This document shows positions 5,170-42,472 of a DNA stretch of 44,517 nucleotides, piece after piece; positions within the stretch are counted from its first letter, which is position 1; the number at the start of each line of letters is the position of its first letter. This stretch comes from Escherichia phage ST20: sequence record MF153391.1, one strand, 5' to 3'. The position numbers were made by a program, and so were the translations under genes. The notes beneath the pieces are model-generated. The model saw only the letters and a program-made list of their open reading frames with translations, had not been told where the DNA came from and searched no databases.

Positions 5170-5198
5170 ATAGTAGTCTATTCTATCTTAGCGTGCAA
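5170..5198 (-). promoter_or_regulatory. Promoter TTGCAC-17-TACTAT with palindrome GAATAG-TAGT-CTATTC
   Basis: Reverse complement reads TTGCAC, 17-nt spacer, TACTAT; inverted repeat at 5168-5183. Confidence 0.5.
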
Positions 5199-5863: not shown

Positions 5864-6055
5864 TTAGTCCTCCAGAATTTCGCATTCACAGGGGTACACA
5901 ACTACATAGCCGGCGTCGCATTCAATTACGAATGTACCGTCCGCTACGTCGTCCACTTCAAATTCATCACCGACCGCCAAACCCCAGTAACTAAGCGGCA
6001 AATCGTCACCATCGCGCGGGTCCACATAATCAACATCAGTTATACGAATTCTCAT
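5864..6055 (-). CDS. Small acidic protein, paralog A (MRIRITD...)
   Basis: ORF track 5864..6064; ATG at 6055 preceded by GAGGGAGG; shares M-x-I-x-ITD...VGD-F-(D/E)V pattern with the adjacent gene. Confidence 0.45.
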   Translation of the reverse strand: MRIRITDVDYVDPRDGDDLPLSYWGLAVGDEFEVDDVADGTFVIECDAGYVVVYPCECEILED

Positions 6056-6288
6056 TAACGGCAACCTCCCTCAGAGTCGTCGGCACGAGCATCATGATTC
6101 GATGCCGTTGTGTATATTTCCGCTTCGGCCTTAGTTACCGGGATTGTGTATCTTCCTGTCTTAATCCACCAGCCATCCTCACAGGAATCCAGTACATCGA
6201 AAACATCACCTACATTTACGCCTATTTTCTCGAGAGCATCGTCATCTTCTTCATAGGTAACGGTGTTATCTGTAATTATGATTTGCAT
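6055..6288 (-). CDS. Small acidic protein, paralog B (MQIIITD...)
   Basis: ORF track 6055..6300; internal ATG at 6288; similar to the 5864-6055 protein. Confidence 0.45.
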   Translation of the reverse strand: MQIIITDNTVTYEEDDDALEKIGVNVGDVFDVLDSCEDGWWIKTGRYTIPVTKAEAEIYTTASNHDARADDSEGGCR

Positions 6289-6503: not shown

Positions 6504-6532
6504 ATAGTATCCTATTATGTTGGGGTGTGCAA
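6504..6532 (-). promoter_or_regulatory. Promoter TTGCAC-17-TACTAT with inverted repeat GAATAG-TATC-CTATTA
   Basis: Reverse complement reads TTGCAC ACCCCAACATAATAGGA TACTAT, near-identical to the promoters at 5170-5198 and 29313-29341. Confidence 0.5.
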
Positions 6533-10377: not shown

Positions 10378-10403
10378 GTCAATTACTCCTTAGTCAGTTG
10401 ATA

Positions 10404-10440
10404 TGTGAATAGTACCATATTAATTATTTTAGAAAAGCCC
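10404..10440 (-). promoter_or_regulatory. Putative promoter of the XRE regulator gene (shares the TACTATTCA element, weak -35)
   Basis: Reverse complement contains TACTATTCACA as in the TTGCAC-type promoters; partial inverted repeat GAATAG-TACC-ATATTA. Confidence 0.3.
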
Positions 10441-10441
10441 A

Positions 10442-10471
10442 TTGACAACATGAATAGTTAGCTATTATAGT
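10442..10471 (+). promoter_or_regulatory. Rightward promoter TTGACA-(17/18)-TATAGT with inverted repeat AATAG-TTAG-CTATT
   Basis: 22-bp core TGAATAGTTAGCTATTATAGTT identical to 13153-13174. Confidence 0.55.
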
Positions 10472-19650: not shown

Positions 19651-19677
19651 AAGGCCCCGTTTGGGGCCTTAGTTTTA
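19651..19677. terminator. Bidirectional terminator between convergent transcription units
   Basis: Stem AAGGCCCC/GGGGCCTT with loop GTTT, U-rich on both strands; same family as 31958 and 40973. Confidence 0.65.
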
Positions 19678-26157: not shown

Positions 26158-28430
26158 TATTTAAACCCCGGCGCGTTTCTTGTGGCCTTGCGGGCCTTGC
26201 TAATCTTACTGTTGCTGTTCTGCAAAGAGGCCGCCACTTGCTCCTCGATGATGATACGCAGACGGCCTTCATCATCTTGTTCGGTGGATACGCGGCCAAT
26301 CTGACTCGATGTGTTATTTACAATGGTAACATTAGACGGGCCGGAAGAAGACCCGTTTTGCCCCATAATTTCTCTCATCTGCTGTGCTGTGCGTACACGC
26401 GACGCGCCAGCGGGCATGATAACTTCTGGTTTACCGCGTTCGGCGATGGTGGAAGCCTGCCCTGCGGATAACTGGCCACCCTGTTCACGTGCTGAACGGA
26501 TGGCAGAAACCTGCGCCATACCTGCCCCAACGGCAGCGGCAGCAGCTACAGGAGCCAGGAACGGGCCAACTACAGGGATAGCCGCCGTGGACTTGTACGC
26601 CTCGATAGCTGCGGTGTACGTGGCTATGGTGGCCTGTACGATAGCGAATGCCTTATACGCACCAGAAGCCTCACCCAACGCGGCCCCGATGTTTGAAGCC
26701 ATGTTACCGAAGGCGGTTGCCGTTGCGTCGGCACGCTTGGTTGCGTATTGCTCGTTGATGGCGTTAAGCGCGGCCTGATACTGCTTCTCACTAATAAGCC
26801 CTTGCTCACGGTACTTATCTGCGACCGCCAGTTTCTGCTGCTCCTGGATATCAAGAAGCTCAAGCTCCGTGGCGTTCTGGCCCATAATCTGAGCCATGAA
26901 GTCGTCACCTTTCTGCTGTTTTTCTTGGGCTTCTTTCTGGCGCTTATCCAGTTCATCTTGTCGTTTTTGCCCTGCTTCTAGGACAATAGCCGTTTTTGCT
27001 TGCTCGTATTCTTTCAGTGACAGCGCGCCCTGGCTGTAGAACTCTTTTGCCTTAGCCAGTTTCTGCTGTTCCTGCGCGTTAATAGCCTTTAACTCATCGT
27101 TGTTCTGACGAGCCAAAGTGTCCAGATAATCTTGGGCCTGCTTACGCAATTGCTCTGCTTTCTTGGCGGCGGCTTTTGCTGCTTTATCGTCGGCGTTTCC
27201 GGTGCCACCAGTTCCGTCCTTTTTATTAACAAGGCTGGCTAAGTCAATCTCTTGCTTCTTGCGCTCATCATACTGCTTGCGCTGTTCCTCGATTTCTTTC
27301 TTACGCTGTTTCGAGCGGTCAGTTATTGCCTGTGATTCGGCCTCTGCACGTTTTATGCTGGCGGCGTATGCGGCGTCGGCCTCCGCGGTCAGGTTTTTAA
27401 ACGTGAGCGCTGCTGTTTTGCTCGGGTCAAACACGTCGGCAAGGGTCCGGCCTAACGCTACGGCGTAATCGTCAATGCGCTGGAACCACGCAATAACCTC
27501 GTGGAATGTCTGCTGGATGTCAGGCAACCACTCTCGGATGGCGTCAGGGATAGTTCCCAGCGAGTCTGACATATCCGCGGATTTGTCCTCGGTGTCGTAT
27601 GCCAGGTCGTTCAAAGCGTCAGAAATAAACTTGAACGACTCATTGAACAGCGTCGCCCAATCCTGGAGTGTGGCGGCTATCTCATTAGATGCGATGGCGT
27701 CGGTAAGCGCCGTTACAGCGTCTTCCGCCATCGCTGCTTGCTCACCTACGGCATCACCAAAACCGGATTGCGCTACCGCAAGAACAAGGCCGTCGAAGGA
27801 GTCGGCGAGGCTCGATAACTGACCATCTAAGGTCTTCGAACGCGTCTCCATCGCTCCGGCGAAATCAGTGTTACCGATATTTAGCAGGTATTTCTGAATC
27901 TCTTCTGAGTTCTTTTTAACCGTGGTTGTTACGCCGCGGAACGTAAACGAAACTGTATCCGCCTGTTGGGAAGACTTGATACCGAACTCTTTTAAGCGCT
28001 CAAATTCAAAGGTACTGGCGTCCGCCACGGCCTCAATCATCTGATTAAGGTCTTTACCCATAGCAGCCGCGGTGTTGCCGTAGGAGATTAATGCCTCTTT
28101 GCTGGGGTTCAGACCGAGGGCTACAAGTTTAGTGAAGCCTTCTACCGCCTGATTGAGGCCATACGGGGTTTCTTTTGCGAACTGTTGCAGGACGCTGAAC
28201 GCCTTAGCCGCGTTCTCTGCGCTTCCGGTCATTGTGATGAGGCCGGAATTCAGCTTATCGAAGTTGCGCTGAGAGTCCACCAGCGCGCTGAACACCTGCT
28301 TAGCGGTTTCCAGACTGACAACGGCAGCGGCAGCAGCCCCCGCTGCCTTAGTAAGCCCGTTCAGTTGGGATGTGGTTTTATCGACGCCGGTCGATGATAC
28401 TCGTACTATCAAGCTAGCGGTATCAGCCAT
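26157..28430 (-). CDS. Tail tape measure protein
   Basis: ORF track 26157..28445 (start taken at MADTASL); about 757 aa, Ala/Gln/Lys-rich coiled-coil segments; follows the chaperone pair. Confidence 0.75.
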   Translation of the reverse strand: MADTASLIVRVSSTGVDKTTSQLNGLTKAAGAAAAAVVSLETAKQVFSALVDSQRNFDKLNSGLITMTGSAENAAKAFSVLQQFAKETPYGLNQAVEGFTKLVALGLNPSKEALISYGNTAAAMGKDLNQMIEAVADASTFEFERLKEFGIKSSQQADTVSFTFRGVTTTVKKNSEEIQKYLLNIGNTDFAGAMETRSKTLDGQLSSLADSFDGLVLAVAQSGFGDAVGEQAAMAEDAVTALTDAIASNEIAATLQDWATLFNESFKFISDALNDLAYDTEDKSADMSDSLGTIPDAIREWLPDIQQTFHEVIAWFQRIDDYAVALGRTLADVFDPSKTAALTFKNLTAEADAAYAASIKRAEAESQAITDRSKQRKKEIEEQRKQYDERKKQEIDLASLVNKKDGTGGTGNADDKAAKAAAKKAEQLRKQAQDYLDTLARQNNDELKAINAQEQQKLAKAKEFYSQGALSLKEYEQAKTAIVLEAGQKRQDELDKRQKEAQEKQQKGDDFMAQIMGQNATELELLDIQEQQKLAVADKYREQGLISEKQYQAALNAINEQYATKRADATATAFGNMASNIGAALGEASGAYKAFAIVQATIATYTAAIEAYKSTAAIPVVGPFLAPVAAAAAVGAGMAQVSAIRSAREQGGQLSAGQASTIAERGKPEVIMPAGASRVRTAQQMREIMGQNGSSSGPSNVTIVNNTSSQIGRVSTEQDDEGRLRIIIEEQVAASLQNSNSKISKARKATRNAPGFK

Positions 28431-28755
28431 GATTTCTACCTTCAAAGATTGCTTCTAAGCCCATGATAACGTCTATCTCGAACAGGCTAAGCTGTTTTTG
28501 CGTAACATCGAGATAGGCTTTCAGGTCTTGCCACGTAACGGATTCTCTTGCAAACAATACTACAGCGTCCTCGCGCACGTGTCGCGTAAACTTAATGTCA
28601 CAGTACGTCTCAAAGGTGGATATAAAAAGGGGCGGGCATTCTGGCCCACCCCGTCGCGCTGCACGTTTTTTCTTATCGATTACACCCATCGCGATAAGCG
28701 CCTGTTCGTGTCCGTCGGCTATAGAATCAAACTCTCTGATTTTATGCTTATCCAC
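28423..28755 (-). CDS. Tail assembly chaperone, frameshift extension (T-like)
   Basis: ORF track; no SD; this frame is open upstream to 28818 and overlaps the last codons of the 28788-29204 gene in the -1 frame. Confidence 0.4.
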   Translation of the reverse strand: MDKHKIREFDSIADGHEQALIAMGVIDKKKRAARRGGPECPPLFISTFETYCDIKFTRHVREDAVVLFARESVTWQDLKAYLDVTQKQLSLFEIDVIMGLEAIFEGRNHG

Positions 28756-28787
28756 AAACTCGTAGGTGGCGAACCTGTACAGCGCGT

Positions 28788-29204
28788 CTACTTTTCCTGT
28801 AATGCTTTGCGTTCGGCGTTATGGAACGCCGCCACCTGTGTACCTAATGCCTTGAACTGGTCCAGCAATTTGTTAAATGCTTCTTTAGAGAAAGGCTCAT
28901 CAAAGCTCCAGCCGTTTACGACTTCTGCCGCGAGTTGTCGATTGAGGTCTTCCGCCAGTTCGTTGACCGCCAGGTTATATTCAGTATAGTCGCCGGATTC
29001 TTTGGCGGCTTTTTCCAGTTCTTCGAAACGCGCCAGCCCGCGTCGGTACGCGATAATGAAAGCACGCCCTGCTTTAACGGCGGCATCTGCATCGGGACTT
29101 ACGACGTTAAGCCACTCACCAGAGTCTTCGCCGTTTGGTAGTAGAATCGGCATCTTCTTGCCTACCAGTGCTTTCTCTTCGAAATAAAAATCAGAAAGTT
29201 TCAT
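28788..29204 (-). CDS. Tail assembly chaperone (G-like)
   Basis: ORF track 138 aa; acidic; AAGGA upstream; directly upstream of the T-like frame and the tape measure gene. Confidence 0.45.
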   Translation of the reverse strand: MKLSDFYFEEKALVGKKMPILLPNGEDSGEWLNVVSPDADAAVKAGRAFIIAYRRGLARFEELEKAAKESGDYTEYNLAVNELAEDLNRQLAAEVVNGWSFDEPFSKEAFNKLLDQFKALGTQVAAFHNAERKALQEK

Positions 29205-29312
29205 TCTTTAATCCTTTGGTTAAGAGGTTACTGGTTAACGGTAAATGCGCCAGACGGGAACCACCCGCTTTTCGTGTGCGACACTAGGCGCAAACTTATT
29301 CTAGCACACTAC

Positions 29313-29341
29313 TTGCACACCCCAATATAATAGGGTACTAT
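29313..29341 (+). promoter_or_regulatory. Rightward promoter TTGCAC-17-TACTAT with inverted repeat TAATAG-GGTA-CTATTC, driving the accessory cassette
   Basis: Direct reading; near-identical to the leftward promoters at 5170-5198 and 6504-6532. Confidence 0.55.
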
Positions 29342-29371
29342 TCACCTACACCAACAATGAAGGAGTTTAAA

Positions 29372-29563
29372 ATGTCCAGTTTACCAGTTTCCTTAATTCT
29401 GTTTGCACTGCTCGCCTATTTCGCACCTTTCCTGGTTGCGTATTTCCGCGACCATAAAGCGAAGTTAGCGATATTCATGGCCAACCTGTTTCTTGGCTGG
29501 ATTCTGCTGCCGTGGGTATTTATTTTAATCTGGGCTTGCAACTCGAATGTCAAAGAGAAGTGA
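29372..29563 (+). CDS. Small membrane protein with two transmembrane segments
   Basis: ORF track 29357..29563; ATG at 29372 preceded by AGGAG at 7 nt. Confidence 0.5.
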   Translation: MSSLPVSLILFALLAYFAPFLVAYFRDHKAKLAIFMANLFLGWILLPWVFILIWACNSNVKEK

Positions 29564-29600
29564 GCTAGTATAGGACAAATCCTAAGCGTGAGGAATAAGC

Positions 29601-30731
29601 ATGGCCCGGAAGAAAATAACCGACGAACAGTTGCAGGAAGAATTGAACGCCGGTATGAAGAATATCGACATCGCCCGTAAATACGGCATCTCAGACCGCG
29701 TTATTCGCATCCGTAAAGCGAAGCTGGCAAAGAAAGGCGTAGGTCACGGGCGAGACGTTAGCCATCTTGTACCAGACGGCTACAAGATTAAAGGCACGTC
29801 GTCACTGGTGGACGAGTTCGGCAACACTAAGTTGCAATGGGTTAAGACTGACACTGACGCCGAACGTCAGGTTGAGTTGATGAAAGCCGTAATCGAGGGC
29901 ATGAAGTCAGAGATTACCCCCGTTGCACCTGTTAAAGCGACCCGAGCCAAACGCGACGATAAACTGCTTAATCTTTACACTGTATCTGATTTCCATCTAG
30001 GTATGCTGGCATGGGCCGACGAGAGTGGCGACGACTGGGACATGAAGATTGCGGAAGACCTGTTCTCCAGCTGGTTCGATGCTGCGTTTCAGAAAGCGCC
30101 GGATGCAGGAACAGGAGTTATTAATCTGCTGGGCGACCTCGCTCACTTCGATAGTCTGGACGCGGTTACGCCGGCGAGCGGCCATATTCTTGACGCGGAC
30201 ACGCGCTATCAGAAACTGGTCCGCTACATGATTCGTATGGTACGTCGTGTCGTTGATATGGCTCTTGTTAAGCATAAAACTGTTCGCTTGCTTATCGTGC
30301 AAGGGAACCACGACGAATCGGGTATGATTTGGTTGTCTGAGATGTTCAGTACGCTGTACGACAATGAGCCTCGTGTGCTCGTCGATACGTCGCCGGATGT
30401 TTACAAGATGGTGCAACACGGCAAAACGACGCTGTTCTTCCATCATGGGCATAAAGCACGCTTCGACGCTATTGAGCCTGTTATGATTGCCAAGTTCCGC
30501 AAAGCGTTCGGCGAGAGTGTTTACAGCTACGCCCACGTAGGCCACCTGCACCATCAGAAGATTGTAGAAAGCCGTAACATGATTGTTGAGCAACACCGCA
30601 CCCTGGCGGCTAAAGACGCCTACGCCTCCCGCGGCGGATGGATGTCAGGCCGTAGTGCAAATGTAATTACTTATAGCGCCGAATATGGCGAGGTCGCACG
30701 TTTAACTATTTCACCGGAGATGCTTGGATGA
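29601..30731 (+). CDS. Calcineurin-like metallophosphoesterase with N-terminal helix-turn-helix domain
   Basis: ORF track 376 aa; metallophosphatase motifs DFHLG, GDLAHFD, GNHDE, GHLHH; N-terminal IARKYGISDRVIRIRKAKL. Confidence 0.6.
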   Translation: MARKKITDEQLQEELNAGMKNIDIARKYGISDRVIRIRKAKLAKKGVGHGRDVSHLVPDGYKIKGTSSLVDEFGNTKLQWVKTDTDAERQVELMKAVIEGMKSEITPVAPVKATRAKRDDKLLNLYTVSDFHLGMLAWADESGDDWDMKIAEDLFSSWFDAAFQKAPDAGTGVINLLGDLAHFDSLDAVTPASGHILDADTRYQKLVRYMIRMVRRVVDMALVKHKTVRLLIVQGNHDESGMIWLSEMFSTLYDNEPRVLVDTSPDVYKMVQHGKTTLFFHHGHKARFDAIEPVMIAKFRKAFGESVYSYAHVGHLHHQKIVESRNMIVEQHRTLAAKDAYASRGGWMSGRSANVITYSAEYGEVARLTISPEMLG

Positions 30732-31216
30732 AAGATATTGTTATTTTCGATTTAGACGGGACATTGGCGGATGGTACTCATCGTTTACATCTGCTGCCGA
30801 AAGATAACTATGGCGAAACCTGGGCGTGGAAGCCTTTTAACATGGCCTGTAAAGATGATGCGCCGATATATGACAACATTCACTTGTGCAACACACTGTG
30901 GCATACCGGGATGACCATAATAATCCTTACCGGGCGCAGTGATGATGCTGAGGATGAGACTCGTAAATGGTTGCGAGAAAATAACGTTAAGTTTGACACG
31001 CTGATAATGCGCAGCAAACACGTCAACAGAAAAGACATCGTAATTAAAGAAGAAGTGTTGCGCGCTATCGGGCTGGAAAGAATCTTGTGTGCATTCGATG
31101 ATTCTCCGGCGGTAATAAAGCATTTCCGCGAACTCGGCATAACCACTCACGCGGTTACTGAATACGACTGTAACGGGAACTCAACACACTTAAAACCACA
31201 TGGGAGCGATAAATAA
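30728..31216 (+). CDS. HAD-family phosphatase resembling the T4 polynucleotide kinase 3'-phosphatase domain
   Basis: ORF track 162 aa; VIFDLDGTLA, IIILTGRSD, KDIVIKEEVL, CAFDDSPAVIKHFRELGI compared from memory with the T4 Pnk phosphatase domain. Confidence 0.55.
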   Translation: MKDIVIFDLDGTLADGTHRLHLLPKDNYGETWAWKPFNMACKDDAPIYDNIHLCNTLWHTGMTIIILTGRSDDAEDETRKWLRENNVKFDTLIMRSKHVNRKDIVIKEEVLRAIGLERILCAFDDSPAVIKHFRELGITTHAVTEYDCNGNSTHLKPHGSDK

Positions 31217-31785
31217 TGGCTAAGGTAATTATTCTTAATGGCCCTGCGGGTTGCGGGAAAGACACGCTTGCTATGGCACTGGTAGAAATGGGCTTTGCAA
31301 AAGGAACTGCCAGTTTCAAGAATCCAATGTTCAATATTGCTTTGGCAGCGTTAGGCCCGGATGCTTACCATGAGTTTCTCGACGGCTACGACGACCGGGC
31401 GCGTAAAGAAAAGCCAGAAGGCTTCCTTAACGGCTTGTCGCGACGTCAGTTCATGGTTGCTATCTCTGAGCAATTCATTAAACCTGTACTCGGTAGTGAT
31501 TATTTCGGTAAGTATCTTGCTGAAAACTTGCCAGACGGCAACGAAGTTTTTGTAGTGTCCGACGGTGGATTCGCCAGTGAAGTAGCCCCTATCATCGCCG
31601 CGGGGCATGATGTGAGAATCGTTCGCTTGCACAGAGACGGCTATACGTTTGAAGGGGACAGCCGTGGTTATCTGTATGATATTGATGGTGCGGTATGTCA
31701 TGACGTCGCCGTCATTCCGGGCGAGATTACATTAACAGCGGCCGTGATTGCTAATAGAATCCTGGGGATTTACCCAAATGCGTGA
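31216..31785 (+). CDS. P-loop kinase, dNMP-kinase-like (resembles T4 gp1)
   Basis: ORF track 189 aa; Walker A GPAGCGKDT; segments VFVVSDGGFASEV and GHDVRIVRLHRDG compared from memory with T4 gp1. Confidence 0.5.
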   Translation: MAKVIILNGPAGCGKDTLAMALVEMGFAKGTASFKNPMFNIALAALGPDAYHEFLDGYDDRARKEKPEGFLNGLSRRQFMVAISEQFIKPVLGSDYFGKYLAENLPDGNEVFVVSDGGFASEVAPIIAAGHDVRIVRLHRDGYTFEGDSRGYLYDIDGAVCHDVAVIPGEITLTAAVIANRILGIYPNA

Positions 31786-31954
31786 AGGCACAATGGGAAC
31801 AATATACGTTATCCGCGTATATGACGAAGAATGGGATGAATGGGTTGATATTTACGCCGTAGGTAGCAAGGAAGAGGCCTCTAAAGAAATGACAGAACGA
31901 AGTGACCGAGGCCAGTTAACTAACTTCTACGAAATGCCATTCAAAAGTGAGTAA
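31778..31954 (+). CDS. Hypothetical acidic protein, last gene of the cassette
   Basis: ORF track 31748..31954; ATG at 31778 or 31793. Confidence 0.35.
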   Translation: MREGTMGTIYVIRVYDEEWDEWVDIYAVGSKEEASKEMTERSDRGQLTNFYEMPFKSE

Positions 31955-31957
31955 GAA

Positions 31958-31984
31958 AAGGCCCCGAAAGGGGCCTTAGTTTTA
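31958..31984. terminator. Bidirectional terminator
   Basis: Stem AAGGCCCC/GGGGCCTT with loop GAAA, followed by AGTTTTA; near-identical to 19651-19677. Confidence 0.65.
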
Positions 31985-33157
31985 TGCGTAGGTAATACGC
32001 TGGATAACAATAGACGACTGGTACTGGTTGCCGGTAGCCTGCCCTTCAATGGACTGAGTGATTGACTCAGGCCCGCCAATCTCTGGTGTGACTGCCGTAA
32101 GCTCTGCACGTTTCAGGCTGAAAGACATAGCCCCGTTTACCCCCGCCAGAATAGAGTTAATCTCCACCTGTTGCTCGTTGATAAACTTCTGAATCATCGC
32201 CATGTCATACAGCTTGCCGGAGATGGAGAATGTGTTAGCTGCACGGCCTCGCTCCACGAACGCGACGCTACTGTTGCCTAGTTCGAACTGCGCGGAAGCA
32301 CCGTTGTCGTTGGTGATGGTCAGGGTATCGCAACGCAACGGCGTAGAACCGTCGAACACAGACACATCTACGGACGAGAACGGCTCGTCAGTGAATGTGA
32401 CCTGAGAGAAATCAGAGCCAGACGGCGGAGCGGTGAGAATCTCCTGACTCAGGCCGATGAACGGGAAGCTGCCTGTCACCATCGCGTTTACGGCCTGCTC
32501 GATAGTAAAACCGGAGATTTCCACACCTTTGGTAAGCATGTACGCGTCAGGGTTGCCGCACTGGCCCTTGAACCATGTCAGGATGGAGAACGTCTTACAC
32601 GCATTACCGGTTTCCAGTTTGTCGCCGGTTTTGCCATCGGTCTCGATAGGGCCTTCGGCGGTAAGGGTGTGCTGAATGCCTGCGCCAGTAACCACAGTAG
32701 CTGTTACGGCAGTAACGATGAACGGCTTAGAGTTATCGCCAGTTAAAGCATCAAAATATAGAAGGTCCCCGACCTCTACGCCGTCAGTAATGAAACTACC
32801 AGTGCCGCGTGTGAAAGTTTTTGCTACCGGGTCTACCGTAATACCGACAGCGGATAAGGTTACCCCATCCTGCCACGTAGAAGTCATAGCGCCCGCAAGG
32901 AAATCATCCTGGCTACGGGAGCTAAGCTCGATAGCATATTCTCCGCTAACCTGCTTGTTGCCGGTGCGGATGGATGTAGTTTCACGGCTGCCGTCCAGCT
33001 CGTTGGAGGTCAGCGCATCGCGGGTTACCGCAGGAACGCCGCCCGTATTGCGCAACGGCGACCATACCGGGTTATCAGGTGTTACGCCCGGGGTCACTTC
33101 CGCCACATAGAATTGCGCGGTATTCGCGCCCTTAAAAGGAGTTGTAGCCATATTCAC
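31982..33157 (-). CDS. Major tail protein (V-like)
   Basis: ORF track 391 aa; Thr/Gly/Ser-rich; follows the tail terminator-like gene and precedes the chaperone genes in transcription order. Confidence 0.5.
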   Translation of the reverse strand: MNMATTPFKGANTAQFYVAEVTPGVTPDNPVWSPLRNTGGVPAVTRDALTSNELDGSRETTSIRTGNKQVSGEYAIELSSRSQDDFLAGAMTSTWQDGVTLSAVGITVDPVAKTFTRGTGSFITDGVEVGDLLYFDALTGDNSKPFIVTAVTATVVTGAGIQHTLTAEGPIETDGKTGDKLETGNACKTFSILTWFKGQCGNPDAYMLTKGVEISGFTIEQAVNAMVTGSFPFIGLSQEILTAPPSGSDFSQVTFTDEPFSSVDVSVFDGSTPLRCDTLTITNDNGASAQFELGNSSVAFVERGRAANTFSISGKLYDMAMIQKFINEQQVEINSILAGVNGAMSFSLKRAELTAVTPEIGGPESITQSIEGQATGNQYQSSIVIQRITYA

Positions 33158-38986: not shown

Positions 38987-39120
38987 TGGCCCTTCCGAAC
39001 GCGTCAGCGTAACTACACTCAGGACTTACGTCCCGCTCCGTTACCTGCCCGCGCCGCGGTCGCTTGTTCATACTTCACAAGCTCAGGTGGAGCTTATCAT
39101 ATTTTTAGTGAAAAGTCAAC
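38987..39120 (+). repeat. Structured non-coding element, copy 2 (about 130 bp)
   Basis: Near-identical to 6727-6858; hairpins GGAC-TTAC-GTCC (39022-39033) and CCGCG-C-CGCGG (39049-39059) carry compensatory changes relative to copy 1. Confidence 0.6.
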
Positions 39121-39180
39121 TATTCGAATAGTTTATTCCAACATTTACAATTTAGAGGAATAACTGGAATAATCACAGAC

Positions 39181-40800: not shown

Positions 40801-40968
40801 ATGAACTACCATAAACTGATTACCGCTTTCATCAATAACGGTTTGACCGAGAAAGACGCTTTTGATGCGGCATACGCATATAGAAACTGTGACTTGACGC
40901 TTGAAGGGGACTCTCAAGAAGATTATGACGAAGCGGTAAGAGAAGAAATTAGTTGCTGGGAGAGTTAA
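40801..40968 (+). CDS. Hypothetical 55-aa acidic protein on the opposite strand inside the head module
   Basis: Hand translation MNYHKLITAFINNGLTEKDAFDAAYAYRNCDLTLEGDSQEDYDEAVREEISCWES; AGGAGG upstream; terminator immediately downstream. Confidence 0.4.
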   Translation: MNYHKLITAFINNGLTEKDAFDAAYAYRNCDLTLEGDSQEDYDEAVREEISCWES

Positions 40969-40972
40969 AACT

Positions 40973-41000
40973 AAGGCCCCTTACGGGGCCTTTTTTTTTT
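40973..41000 (+). terminator. Strong intrinsic terminator
   Basis: Stem AAGGCCCC/GGGGCCTT with loop TTAC, followed by ten T. Confidence 0.65.
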
Positions 41001-41002
41001 CT

Positions 41003-42472
41003 TTACTCCTGTTGCGGCGCCGACTGCGGAATCTCTCCCTCCACCTTAGTAACAGCCCCTAACGGCAGCGGTGCGTCCTCTATAGCGTTCTGAATGTCCT
41101 CGTCGGTCCAGTCAGTTACACCGGCCTTACGCAATGCTGCGTAATAAGCAGTAGCCGGTAACAGGCCAGCGTTAATATCCGCCATCCACTGAGCGCGGTC
41201 TTGGGCGGTCATCGGTTGCAGGAAGAACTCCATGTTCAGCTTGAACTCAATCTCTGTGGCTTCACGCAACCCTAGCATCGCAGCCACCCAGCGCAATGCG
41301 TCGGCGTACGCCATGCTTACGTTACGTGCGATTGTCGCCATAACGGACGTATCAGCGCCACGTTGCAGACGGGCAGATTCAGCGGTGATTTGCTGCGTCG
41401 GGGTGATAAGCTGCGCACCAATCTGGATCGCCTGATTCTCTTTATCCAGCATGTTCTGTTTGGCGAGGTTGTTCTCTCCTGCCTGAACCAGAAACGCGTT
41501 GCCGCCCTCACCGATGTTATGGCCTGAACGCGACCCCATGCGTACCCCGTGTGGGTTGGCTTCTTTCCACTGCTCCATGCTCATATTCCCGCCCGGGGCG
41601 ATGAACAGAGTGGGCTGGCCCACAACGAAGCTGGACTCCTCATTGTCTGCACTGTTGCGGAAATGTCCGATATTAAGCTCGGCTAACGGTAGCAAAGGCG
41701 CATCGTCTATGGTTGCGTCGTTGTTGCTTGCCCCAATGAACGTGAACGGGATTTTACCGCGCAACTGTTCACCAAGTTCAGGGAATATTTCGATTACGTC
41801 ACCATGAGCGCCACCTTCTGCATCGAAGCGGTAAATGCGCTGGCGGTAGCGGCCTTCAATCAGGTCAAGAACACGATACTGCTCACCAAACTTGGTTTCG
41901 AACTCTGCGCCTGGTTCTGAGTATTCCCATACCTCACGCAACACGACCATTGTCACTCGGTTCACTGAACCGATGCGGGTCAGTCGCCAGTTGATGATGT
42001 TCTCTGCGGTGTAGAATGCGATGACCGGGTTTAATAATCCCGCGTTCTGCTCTGCCGCCGTTGCTGCGGCTGTCTCCGGCGCGTCCACCAGCAACCCGCC
42101 ACGGCCTACCGAGTCAATCTCCATTAGCGTATCCTGCGCGTGCTGCCACAGCCCGACACCAGAACCATCGGCGTTGCATAACAGGTACTCCAGTTCAGGC
42201 GGAATAATCTGTTCAGGGTCTTTGCGCATCACCGACCCCACCATCCCGGCAAGGGTACGTTTGGTGAAGTTGTAGCAGATAGCGCCGTTCTCGTATTCTT
42301 CCTGGCGCTGCGCCGCGTAGGTTGGGTCCGGTTCGTTCTTGCCAACATTACGGAGATAGCGAATAAGGTCGCCCTCCAGCGCGTGGCGTACCTTCTGCCA
42401 TTTATCGAAGTGGTGCAGCCATTCCCGGTGTTTTGTCTTAACACCCTGATTCTGACCGTTCATAGTTAACAT
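41003..42472 (-). CDS. Portal protein
   Basis: ORF track 489 aa; immediately downstream of the terminase large subunit gene. Confidence 0.65.
   Translation of the reverse strand: MLTMNGQNQGVKTKHREWLHHFDKWQKVRHALEGDLIRYLRNVGKNEPDPTYAAQRQEEYENGAICYNFTKRTLAGMVGSVMRKDPEQIIPPELEYLLCNADGSGVGLWQHAQDTLMEIDSVGRGGLLVDAPETAAATAAEQNAGLLNPVIAFYTAENIINWRLTRIGSVNRVTMVVLREVWEYSEPGAEFETKFGEQYRVLDLIEGRYRQRIYRFDAEGGAHGDVIEIFPELGEQLRGKIPFTFIGASNNDATIDDAPLLPLAELNIGHFRNSADNEESSFVVGQPTLFIAPGGNMSMEQWKEANPHGVRMGSRSGHNIGEGGNAFLVQAGENNLAKQNMLDKENQAIQIGAQLITPTQQITAESARLQRGADTSVMATIARNVSMAYADALRWVAAMLGLREATEIEFKLNMEFFLQPMTAQDRAQWMADINAGLLPATAYYAALRKAGVTDWTDEDIQNAIEDAPLPLGAVTKVEGEIPQSAPQQE

Follow-up and report, generated by a model that had tools for sequence, protein, structure and literature searches.

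A gene slot between two predicted tail transcription units of a Kagunavirus-type phage, with a phosphatase-kinase pair that probably serves nucleotide salvage

The genome sequence of Escherichia phage ST20 (MF153391.1), analysed here in its full length of 44,517 nucleotides and called the window below, carries five rightward genes between the leftward genes for the major tail (tube) protein and the tail assembly chaperones. In order, the genes encode a small membrane protein (gene 1), a metallophosphoesterase (MPE) fused to a helix-turn-helix (HTH) domain (gene 2), a HAD phosphatase (gene 3), a P-loop kinase (gene 4) and a small acidic protein (gene 5). It appears probable that this cassette fills an accessory-gene slot at a natural break in tail transcription, that it is made of separable sub-modules, and that its phosphatase and kinase act as a pair in nucleotide salvage. 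The first-pass annotation of the region had left three functions side by side, namely the healing of nucleic acid ends, nucleotide salvage and the degradation of signalling nucleotides. Salvage, or the supply of DNA precursors, is now the best-supported of the three. End healing is weaker, and so is signal degradation; we found no specific evidence that cyclic nucleotides are degraded.

In the explanation that we favour, the cassette would comprise three sub-modules. The first would be an envelope protein, in this phage of the T4 Imm family, that acts against superinfection. The second would be a catalytically intact, Mre11/SbcD-like MPE that is tethered by its HTH domain and cuts or trims DNA. 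The third would consist of an exchangeable Pnkp-type HAD phosphatase and T4 gp1-type kinase, together with a genus-specific acidic orphan. The phosphatase-kinase pair would recycle nuclease breakdown products of DNA into the deoxynucleoside triphosphate (dNTP) pool: the HAD enzyme would take 3'-phosphates off mono- or oligonucleotides, and the kinase would turn deoxynucleoside monophosphates (dNMPs) into the diphosphates (dNDPs). Family, fold and genomic context are what suggests these substrates and the salvage role; early or middle expression of the genes is likewise a prediction.

Slot contents and breakpoints

Complete genomes of 44 kb, among them that of phage EcoPhCCP1, are collinear with the window, which thus represents essentially a whole Kagunavirus-type genome. 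At about 80-91% nucleotide identity, a search with the 2.8-kb region finds 204 phage records, of which almost all are from Escherichia Kagunavirus and Salmonella Jerseyvirus (Guernseyvirinae). Homologues of the tail-tube protein with at least 60% identity are present in 494 phage records. To learn what lies next to the tube gene in close relatives, we surveyed 41 IMG/VR loci that encode tail-tube proteins 79-93% identical to that of the window; one locus was incomplete and uninformative, which leaves 40. The slot measures between 343 and 2936 bp across the 41 loci. It is nearly empty (343-481 bp) in 6 of the 40 informative loci, holds the MPE gene and a small open reading frame (ORF) of the Jersey type in 18, and holds the MPE, HAD and kinase genes in 16. 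In the surveyed slots, the HAD and kinase genes always occur together (16 of the 34 MPE-bearing loci, 16 of the 40 informative ones).

Slots that lack some or all of the enzymes are also found outside this set. In the outgroup Vibrio phage 1.206.O (34% identity in the tail tube), the chaperone genes directly follow the tube gene, and there is no cassette. Phage phiEap-2 has a slot of 519 bp with one small ORF on the opposite strand, and lacks MPE, HAD and kinase genes genome-wide. In Pantoea phage AH01, the slot encodes the MPE, a nuclease and a small protein whose N-terminus resembles a signal peptide. The Jersey and wast slots contain a first gene, the MPE gene, a small ORF and a gene for a KilAC-domain protein, and in some cases an HNH endonuclease gene. 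The small ORF that takes the place of the HAD and kinase genes was considered as a relative of the Drexlerviridae SH3/DUF7244 protein, but it has no such Pfam match.

The breakpoints between the two common slot types are sharp. Relatives without HAD and kinase align to the window up to position 30738, next to the MPE stop codon that ends at 30731, and again from position 31948, shortly before the terminator that starts at 31958. The HAD-kinase-acidic block between them (30739-31947) has 46.5% GC, compared to 50.8% for the genome, and is a clean replaceable unit. The tail chaperone gene at 28788-29204(-) exists in two alleles among close relatives, as judged from amino acid identities of either 97-99% or 50-57% (loci L021-L061), and the tail-tube proteins of these relatives are 86-93% identical. 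Recombination therefore reaches a structural gene beside the slot.

The slot region is thus a recombination hot spot with exchanges at gene boundaries, and at the scale of the subfamily this upholds the idea, put forward in the first-pass annotation, that the cassette is an acquired module. The outgroup without a cassette, the near-empty slots and the clean breakpoints all speak for exchangeability, but the module is not peculiar to this genome. A second island on the opposite strand, with an 'amidase' gene, is found in EcoPhCCP1 between the head morphogenesis and portal genes (locus L020, 41067-41720). It is missing from the corresponding place in the window (40900-41100), and may therefore be another variable slot in the structural arm.

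Transcription signals around the cassette

All features are listed in Table 1. The five-gene cassette on the opposite strand, its ORFs and both leftward flanks are as first described, and so are the five protein assignments (two-pass membrane protein, HTH-MPE, Pnk-like HAD phosphatase, dNMP-kinase-like P-loop protein, acidic protein). The genes are oriented like the replication genes. The ORF of gene 1 opens at 29357, but an AAGGAG ribosome-binding site lies inside this longer ORF and the annotated orthologues have 192 nt, so that translation most likely starts at 29372. The MPE and HAD genes overlap by 4 nt (ATGA), the HAD and kinase genes by 1 nt (TAATG), and the kinase and acidic protein genes by 8 nt (ATGCGTGA), with the ATG of gene 5 overlapping the kinase stop. 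These junctions indicate translational coupling. Antisense ORFs within the cassette have no match to a PHROG family and are treated as presumably non-coding. For the chaperone gene on the left flank, the K1ind1 orthologue is annotated as joined (frameshifted).

The cassette had been credited with a promoter and a terminator of its own, and both have held up as sequence predictions. The promoter has only 8 of the 12 sigma-70 consensus positions and lies under the threshold of the promoter scanner. It is conserved in the Jerseyvirus phages Jersey and wast as TTGCAT-17-TATTAT, and belongs to a family of three copies in the window: 27 of 29 positions, spacer included, are identical at 6504-6532(-), and the third copy is at 5170-5198(-). 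Both of these copies precede leftward clusters of small ORFs. The extended core AATAGnnTACTATTCAyTTA has 6 hits in the window, compared to 0.04 expected. With its conservation across genera, its near-identical copies and the excess of hits, the promoter goes beyond a chance match. The conserved spacer and start region suggest that the family may have an extra binding site for a regulator. Weaker copies of the family (CTTGCAC..AATAGnnTACTATTCAyTTA) are found at 10402-10421(-), 10447-10466(-) and 39105-39124(-).

The terminator hairpin has a stem of 8 bp, of which 6 are G-C pairs, and scores as a terminator on both strands. A nearly identical twin, the hairpin AAGGCCCCGTTTGGGGCCTT followed by AGTTTTA, is located at 19651-19670(+), where it closes the rightward replication module at the convergent junction with the tailspike gene. 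With a promoter from a phage-specific family and a terminator that is the twin of the one behind the replication module, the cassette is wired into the phage's own transcription signals. In relatives, inserted genes are bordered by further copies of the hairpin; locus L025, for instance, has two.

On the chaperone side, the motif TGnTAGAAT is kept across Kagunavirus, AH01 and phiEap-2, whereas its N varies (C, T, A or G). As such variation is expected of an extended -10 element, we read the motif as a putative leftward promoter. It is only 9 bp away from the -35 element of the cassette promoter. Divergent promoters arranged back to back are implied, with a putative separate transcription unit for the chaperones, the tape measure protein and the distal tail proteins.

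The leader of this unit is predicted to form a structured RNA. Its sequence matches the full int-alpA RNA model (Rfam RF02996) with 33.8 bits (E 1.3e-5), 2 bits short of the gathering score of 35.8, which the EcoPhCCP1 orthologue of the site passes with 36.6 bits. Positions 6025-6089 of locus L001 also correspond to this match. In 11 distinct Guernseyvirinae sequences, 96.8% of the cells in the three helices are paired, compared to 30-61% when the helices are slid. Compensatory changes on both sides occur in 5 of the 14 pairs, and the observed values are reached by only 0-4 of 500 shuffles. The helices covary across Kagunavirus, Jerseyvirus, AH01 and phiEap-2. The TGnTAGAAT element has no further exact copy in the window, and the leader RNA is present only once. 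An AlpA-like regulator was considered as a companion of the RNA, but the EcoPhCCP1 'excisionase/regulator' gene has no homologue in the window and no Pfam match there.

The 'tail operon' would then be two units, one that passes through the tube gene and ends at the terminator, and one that begins at the promoter-like element and leader and takes in the chaperones, the tape measure and the genes downstream. The cassette lies in the space that separates the two. From the divergent promoters and the covarying leader one can see how a tail gene cluster splits into two transcription units, and the orphan Rfam motif gains a defined place in the genome of what appears to be a strictly lytic phage.

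Table 1. The cassette, its flanks and the signals around it (window coordinates)
Feature	Position	Strand	Basis or remark
Tail assembly chaperone pair (left flank)	28423..29204	-	28788-29204 plus frameshift extension 28423-28755; ORF list
int-alpA-like structured RNA, predicted 5' leader of the chaperone/tape-measure unit	29230..29294	-	Rfam RF02996
Extended -10-like element TGCTAGAAT	29298..29306	-	putative leftward promoter of the chaperone operon
Cassette promoter TTGCAC-17-TACTAT	29313..29341	+	member of a phage-specific promoter family
Gene 1, Imm-type superinfection-immunity membrane protein, 63 aa	29372..29563	+	PF14373, phrog_1039
Gene 2, HTH-fused MPE, 376 aa	29601..30731	+	phrog_704, AF2 model
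Gene 3, stand-alone Pnkp-type HAD phosphatase, 162 aa	30728..31216	+	PF25109 HAD_PNKP
Gene 4, P-loop kinase, fold of T4 gp1 (dNMP kinase) and animal phosphomevalonate kinase, 189 aa	31216..31785	+	phrog_139, 1DEK
Gene 5, small acidic orphan, 58 aa, pI 4.4	31778..31954	+	ORF list
Bidirectional intrinsic terminator	31958..31977	both	common to the cassette and the convergent major tail gene
Major tail (tube) protein gene (right flank)	31982..33157	-	ORF list

The cassette proteins and the roles they may play

The case for salvage depends on genes 3 and 4. The gene 3 protein matches the Pfam family HAD_PNKP (PF25109) at 1.4e-19, and sequence searches of the PDB return Pnkp1 (4xrp) and the phosphatase domain of T4 Pnk (5uj0, 1ltq). 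Residues D8, D10, T12, R19, R70, R101-K102-D103 and D125 are invariant in the alignment with the Pnkp of a T-even phage (Mosigvirus). The alignment covers only the C-terminal half of the 299-residue Pnkp, and the fused P-loop kinase domain is not present. The gene 4 protein belongs to phrog_139 (2e-44). With its AlphaFold2 (AF2) model (pLDDT 93.6) as the query, the top PDB fold is 1DEK (E 8.6e-6, TM score 0.67), followed by phosphomevalonate, adenylate and gluconate kinases, and T4 Pnk is not among the top 50 structural matches. In the P-loop, G14, K15 and D16 are invariant, and G9, P10 and G12 nearly so. By fold, the kinase is thus of the small-molecule type of T4 gp1, and the notion of a Pnk-type kinase has to be given up.

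In other phages, the relatives of the two proteins are encoded among genes for DNA breakdown and DNA precursors. In phage JSE, the closest T-even relative of the HAD protein is encoded by a stand-alone gene that directly follows nrdB, with denA nearby. Among the Autographiviridae, Ahp1 has the order exo-hyp-endoVII-hyp-HAD-P-loop, and KpV48 the order exo-endo-HAD. Phage T1 has PNK-HNH-kinase in its early arm, with PNK standing for polynucleotide kinase, and the Webervirus phages have MPE-PNK-kinase. In the Drexlerviridae, the PNK and dNMP kinase genes are the most frequent ones after the MPE gene, and a role in nucleotide supply has been proposed (PMC13164509). The first-pass annotation saw no ligase, and indeed none is annotated among the 87 genes of the closest annotated relative, which is also the most similar annotated genome. 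We favour nucleotide salvage because of this lack of an annotated ligase, the mononucleotide type of the kinase, and the neighbours in unrelated phages.

The same three enzymes could be read as an end-healing system, in which the MPE would open 2',3'-cyclic phosphates or trim damaged ends, the HAD enzyme would remove 3'-phosphates and the P-loop protein would phosphorylate 5'-OH groups, before a host ligase reseals the strand. We keep this reading, since a phosphatase and a kinase that are always together resemble a split Pnkp, but regard it as rather unlikely; the presumed targets would be DNA or RNA that a toxin or defence nuclease of the host has cut. The HAD protein belongs to the phosphatase family of Pnkp and keeps all residues found invariant with a T-even Pnkp, and the genes for phosphatase and kinase invariably occur side by side or at least together, which recalls the two-domain make-up of Pnkp. 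Moreover, kinase and MPE make up the bacterial Pnkp in Pnkp/Hen1 repair. In Campylobacter phage CP30A, an MPE homologue without an HTH domain (locus L013, 1652-3951) is encoded immediately downstream of a DNA ligase gene; among the contexts seen, this is the only one that hints at end processing. The closest fold to gene 4 is a mononucleotide kinase, however, and neither a ligase nor Hen1 is annotated in the genome of the close relative. E. coli, to our knowledge, has no Rnl-type RNA ligase for RNA ends with 3'-OH and 5'-phosphate, so that the healing of RNA ends would achieve nothing. Stand-alone HAD homologues are found among nucleotide-metabolism and nuclease genes, and about half of the closest relatives do without the pair.

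A variant restricted to DNA appears less probable still. In this case, the MPE, HAD and kinase proteins would clean DNA ends without a ligase of their own, and restore 3'-OH/5'-phosphate ends, on phage DNA that defence nucleases of the host have nicked or broken, for resealing by the host LigA. If it applied, the HTH-MPE family, which occurs in over 2000 phage genomes, would serve as a nuclease in counter-defence or genome maintenance, and not in salvage.

The MPE itself has an HTH domain (residues 8-44), a beta-hairpin and helix (61-104) and the MPE domain (119-376), according to the AF2 model (pLDDT 88.8). It belongs to phrog_704 (8e-167), a family with 2038 phage records that forms a divergent branch of the calcineurin-like metallophosphoesterases. 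A first homologue search returned only sequences with at least 96% identity; a second one, seeded with distant phage homologues, gave the model its diversity. The metal-binding motif set DxH / GD / GNH / H / GHxH is complete, and D130, H132, G178, D179, N236, H237, H282, G314, H315 and H317 are invariant in 114 sequences. The model has the four-layer alpha/beta fold, with 161 PDB matches at E values of 0.001 or below, of which the top 50 are all metallophosphoesterases. Mre11 comes first (E 2e-9), before Rv0805 (1.7e-8), PolD DP1 and YfcE, but the TM scores are only 0.35-0.46, and the label 'DNA repair exonuclease' is therefore a loose analogy. PDB searches with the MPE and kinase sequences, both single-sequence and profile-based, yielded no more than fragments with the HTH or the P-loop. 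Between motifs II and III, at residues 190-205, the protein has an insertion (T-P-x-S-G-H-x-L-D-x-D-x-R-x-x-K) that is nearly invariant in the 114 homologues. It does not belong to the textbook motifs, and may serve this family as a specific site for substrate or metal. No Rad50/SbcC partner is encoded in the cassette or annotated in the closest annotated relative. Literature searches brought up no paper in which this 'DNA repair exonuclease' is connected with escape mutants or defence. To judge from family, fold and context, the gene 2 protein is most likely a DNA-directed nuclease that cuts or trims DNA.

The HTH domain resembles LuxR/GerE, sigma-70 region 4 and a PHROG of late transcriptional activators. 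This raises the possibility that the protein chiefly binds DNA, as a regulator or processing factor where replication gives way to late functions, and that the other genes are unrelated passengers, in which case the cassette would lack a shared biochemical theme. The MPE gene usually comes without HAD and kinase genes (e.g. in Rogue1, Dhillonvirus, Jedunavirus, Vibrio phages and roseophages), as this reading would have it, and the three enzymes cannot be considered as an obligate unit. It often borders replication and lysis or packaging genes, as in Rogue1, slur05, Vibrio phage 49E30, Webervirus and the Drexlerviridae, where it is found in 508 of 522 genomes, directly upstream of the lysis genes (PMC13164509, 2026). 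Nevertheless, we hold a mainly regulatory role to be unlikely. All metal-binding and catalytic residues are invariant across the 114 diverse homologues, so catalysis must be under selection, and the Campylobacter phage homologue lacks the HTH domain entirely. Furthermore, phiEap-2 (genome-wide) and six IMG/VR relatives (in the slot) have the same structural backbone and no MPE, which is thus not an indispensable switch in this backbone.

In a further alternative, the MPE, alone or with the HAD protein, would degrade the cyclic nucleotide or oligonucleotide signals of CBASS, Pycsar, Thoeris or type III CRISPR defence. Rv0805, which is among the top structural matches, is a cyclic-nucleotide phosphodiesterase, and the slot carries accessory genes, as anti-defence loci often do. 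Even so, this appears highly improbable. The N-terminal HTH argues for a DNA-bound enzyme, and motifs I (D-x-H-L-G) and II (G-D-L-x-H), both present, are presumably of the Mre11/SbcD kind. The phage sponges and nucleases for such signals that we know of (Acb1, Apyc1, Tad, Acb2) have other folds. Finally, the persistence of the MPE in the Drexlerviridae whatever the host (PMC13164509) is unusual for an anti-defence gene. In a general comparison, none of the five proteins has a significant match among the PADLOC defence profiles, and NCBIfam added nothing.

Gene 1 most likely blocks superinfection, to judge from its family. It scores 47.2 bits with Imm_superinfect (PF14373; cut-off 27.9, E 2e-12) and matches phrog_1039 at 7e-24. 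Two hydrophobic stretches of about 20 residues around RDHKAK are predicted as two transmembrane segments, and the wast orthologue likewise has two hydropathy peaks. The first slot gene of relatives is of three types, encoding Imm proteins at least 91% or about 65% identical, or a protein with a signal-peptide-like N-terminus. The third type, of about 110 residues, replaces the Imm protein in Jersey (L007, 3109-3438), phiEap-2 (L017, 6202-6534(-)) and AH01 (L015, 8012-8356(-)). It has a signal-peptide-like N-terminal segment followed by a cysteine, matches no Pfam family, and is probably an alternative envelope or exclusion protein. Gene 5 matches no family in Pfam, PHROG, NCBIfam or PADLOC. 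It is present in 22 phage records (20 named Escherichia phages, one Shigella phage and one Kagunavirus), has only 2 cluster representatives among 1.84 billion proteins, and occurs in 6 of the surveyed slot loci independently of HAD and kinase. By these searches it appears to be a genus-restricted orphan.

Several points weigh against the salvage reading and the slot model around it. The functional roles of all these proteins are predictions, and so are the promoters in both directions and what the leader does. The characterised relatives of gene 3, T4 Pnkp and Pnkp1, act on the 3' ends of polynucleotides, not on free nucleotides, and the tightly coupled phosphatase and kinase could equally be a split end-healing enzyme. 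For gene 2, the scores with Pfam Metallophos (20.7, gathering score 27) and Metallophos_2 (17.6, gathering score 21.5) are below threshold, and the fold match of the model is generic, with an E value for the cyclic-nucleotide phosphodiesterase Rv0805 not far from that for Mre11. Because the MPE lacks HAD and kinase companions in most lineages, the three enzymes need not share a pathway. Lastly, the transcriptome of phage vB_Eco_K1B4, taken as a related Kagunavirus, lists the Imm gene as late (PMC12645636), which does not fit a simple early-expression model. Among the outcomes that the first-pass annotation had named as fatal to its interpretation was that the enzymes are nonspecific proteins of dNMP metabolism only; this is now the favoured, albeit unproven, reading.

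Comparison with known systems

The cassette is already known and ordinary for Kagunavirus-type phages, and is not a new system. It cannot count as a novelty of this genome, because it is present and annotated in many Kagunavirus genomes from K1ind1 (2010) onward, and the enzyme trio is not new either, since the order MPE-PNK-dNMP kinase has been described in the Drexlerviridae (PMC13164509). What is added here are the slot census, the exact breakpoints, the gp1-type fold of the kinase, the promoter and terminator families and the covarying int-alpA-like leader. As a discovery the cassette matters little; its value lies in the clear limits of what amounts to an experiment of nature, since the HAD-kinase block, the first envelope gene and the orphan gene have each been exchanged cleanly among close relatives. 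What these very common phage genes contribute, the HTH-MPE gene above all, could therefore be learnt from isogenic comparisons.

Each of the parts has a known counterpart. Gene 1 resembles T4 Imm (PF14373) in its score, well above the Pfam cut-off, and its two membrane spans. Its position, in contrast, is filled in relatives by divergent Imm alleles or signal-peptide-like proteins. Gene 2 shares with Mre11/SbcD the calcineurin-type fold and all metal-binding motifs, and Mre11 is its top PDB match, but it differs by the N-terminal HTH and beta-hairpin domain, the insertion between motifs II and III, and TM scores of only about 0.4-0.46. Gene 3 has the HAD_PNKP domain of T4 Pnkp (PseT, 1LTQ/5UJ0) with its DxDGT, Arg, R-K-D and DD elements. 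Unlike in Pnkp, the N-terminal kinase domain is missing, the adjacent kinase is of another lineage, and there is no RNA ligase partner. Gene 4 shares fold, P-loop type (G-x-x-G-x-G-K-D) and PHROG 139 with the T4 gp1 dNMP kinase (1DEK), yet is only 19% identical and shorter (189 versus 241 residues). The leader is a full-model match to the int-alpA RNA with covarying helices, but precedes a tail chaperone gene instead of lying between int and alpA, and no integrase is annotated in the closest annotated relative of the window.

Two multi-gene systems combine some of the same activities. Bacterial Pnkp/Hen1 (kinase - metallophosphoesterase - ligase) likewise has kinase and MPE chemistry encoded together. 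In the cassette, however, the enzymes are separate genes, the kinase is of the gp1 type, a HAD phosphatase is added, and the ligase and the Hen1 methyltransferase are absent. The block 'DNA repair exonuclease - polynucleotide kinase - dNMP kinase' of the Drexlerviridae (PMC13164509) has the same three families in the same order; in Klebsiella phage phi1_146057, the MPE, HAD and kinase proteins are 41%, 57% and 49% identical to those of the window. In contrast to the cassette, this block is located upstream of the lysis cassette in the replication/lysis arm, is on the same strand as its neighbours, and is not preceded by an Imm gene. The PNK and kinase genes of T1 are separated by an HNH gene and are located away from the MPE gene.

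The same position between the chaperone and tail-tube genes is taken by the gene series ORF20-ORF17 of K1ind1/K1G (GU196279, NC_041897), which has the same orientation and the same order, Imm - MPE - HAD - P-loop. The amino acid identities to the window are 91%, 98%, 87% and 84% in this order, with about 88-91% identity at the nucleotide level. The difference is the acidic fifth gene, which K1ind1 lacks, and which the window shares with EcoPhCCP1 and about 20 other records.

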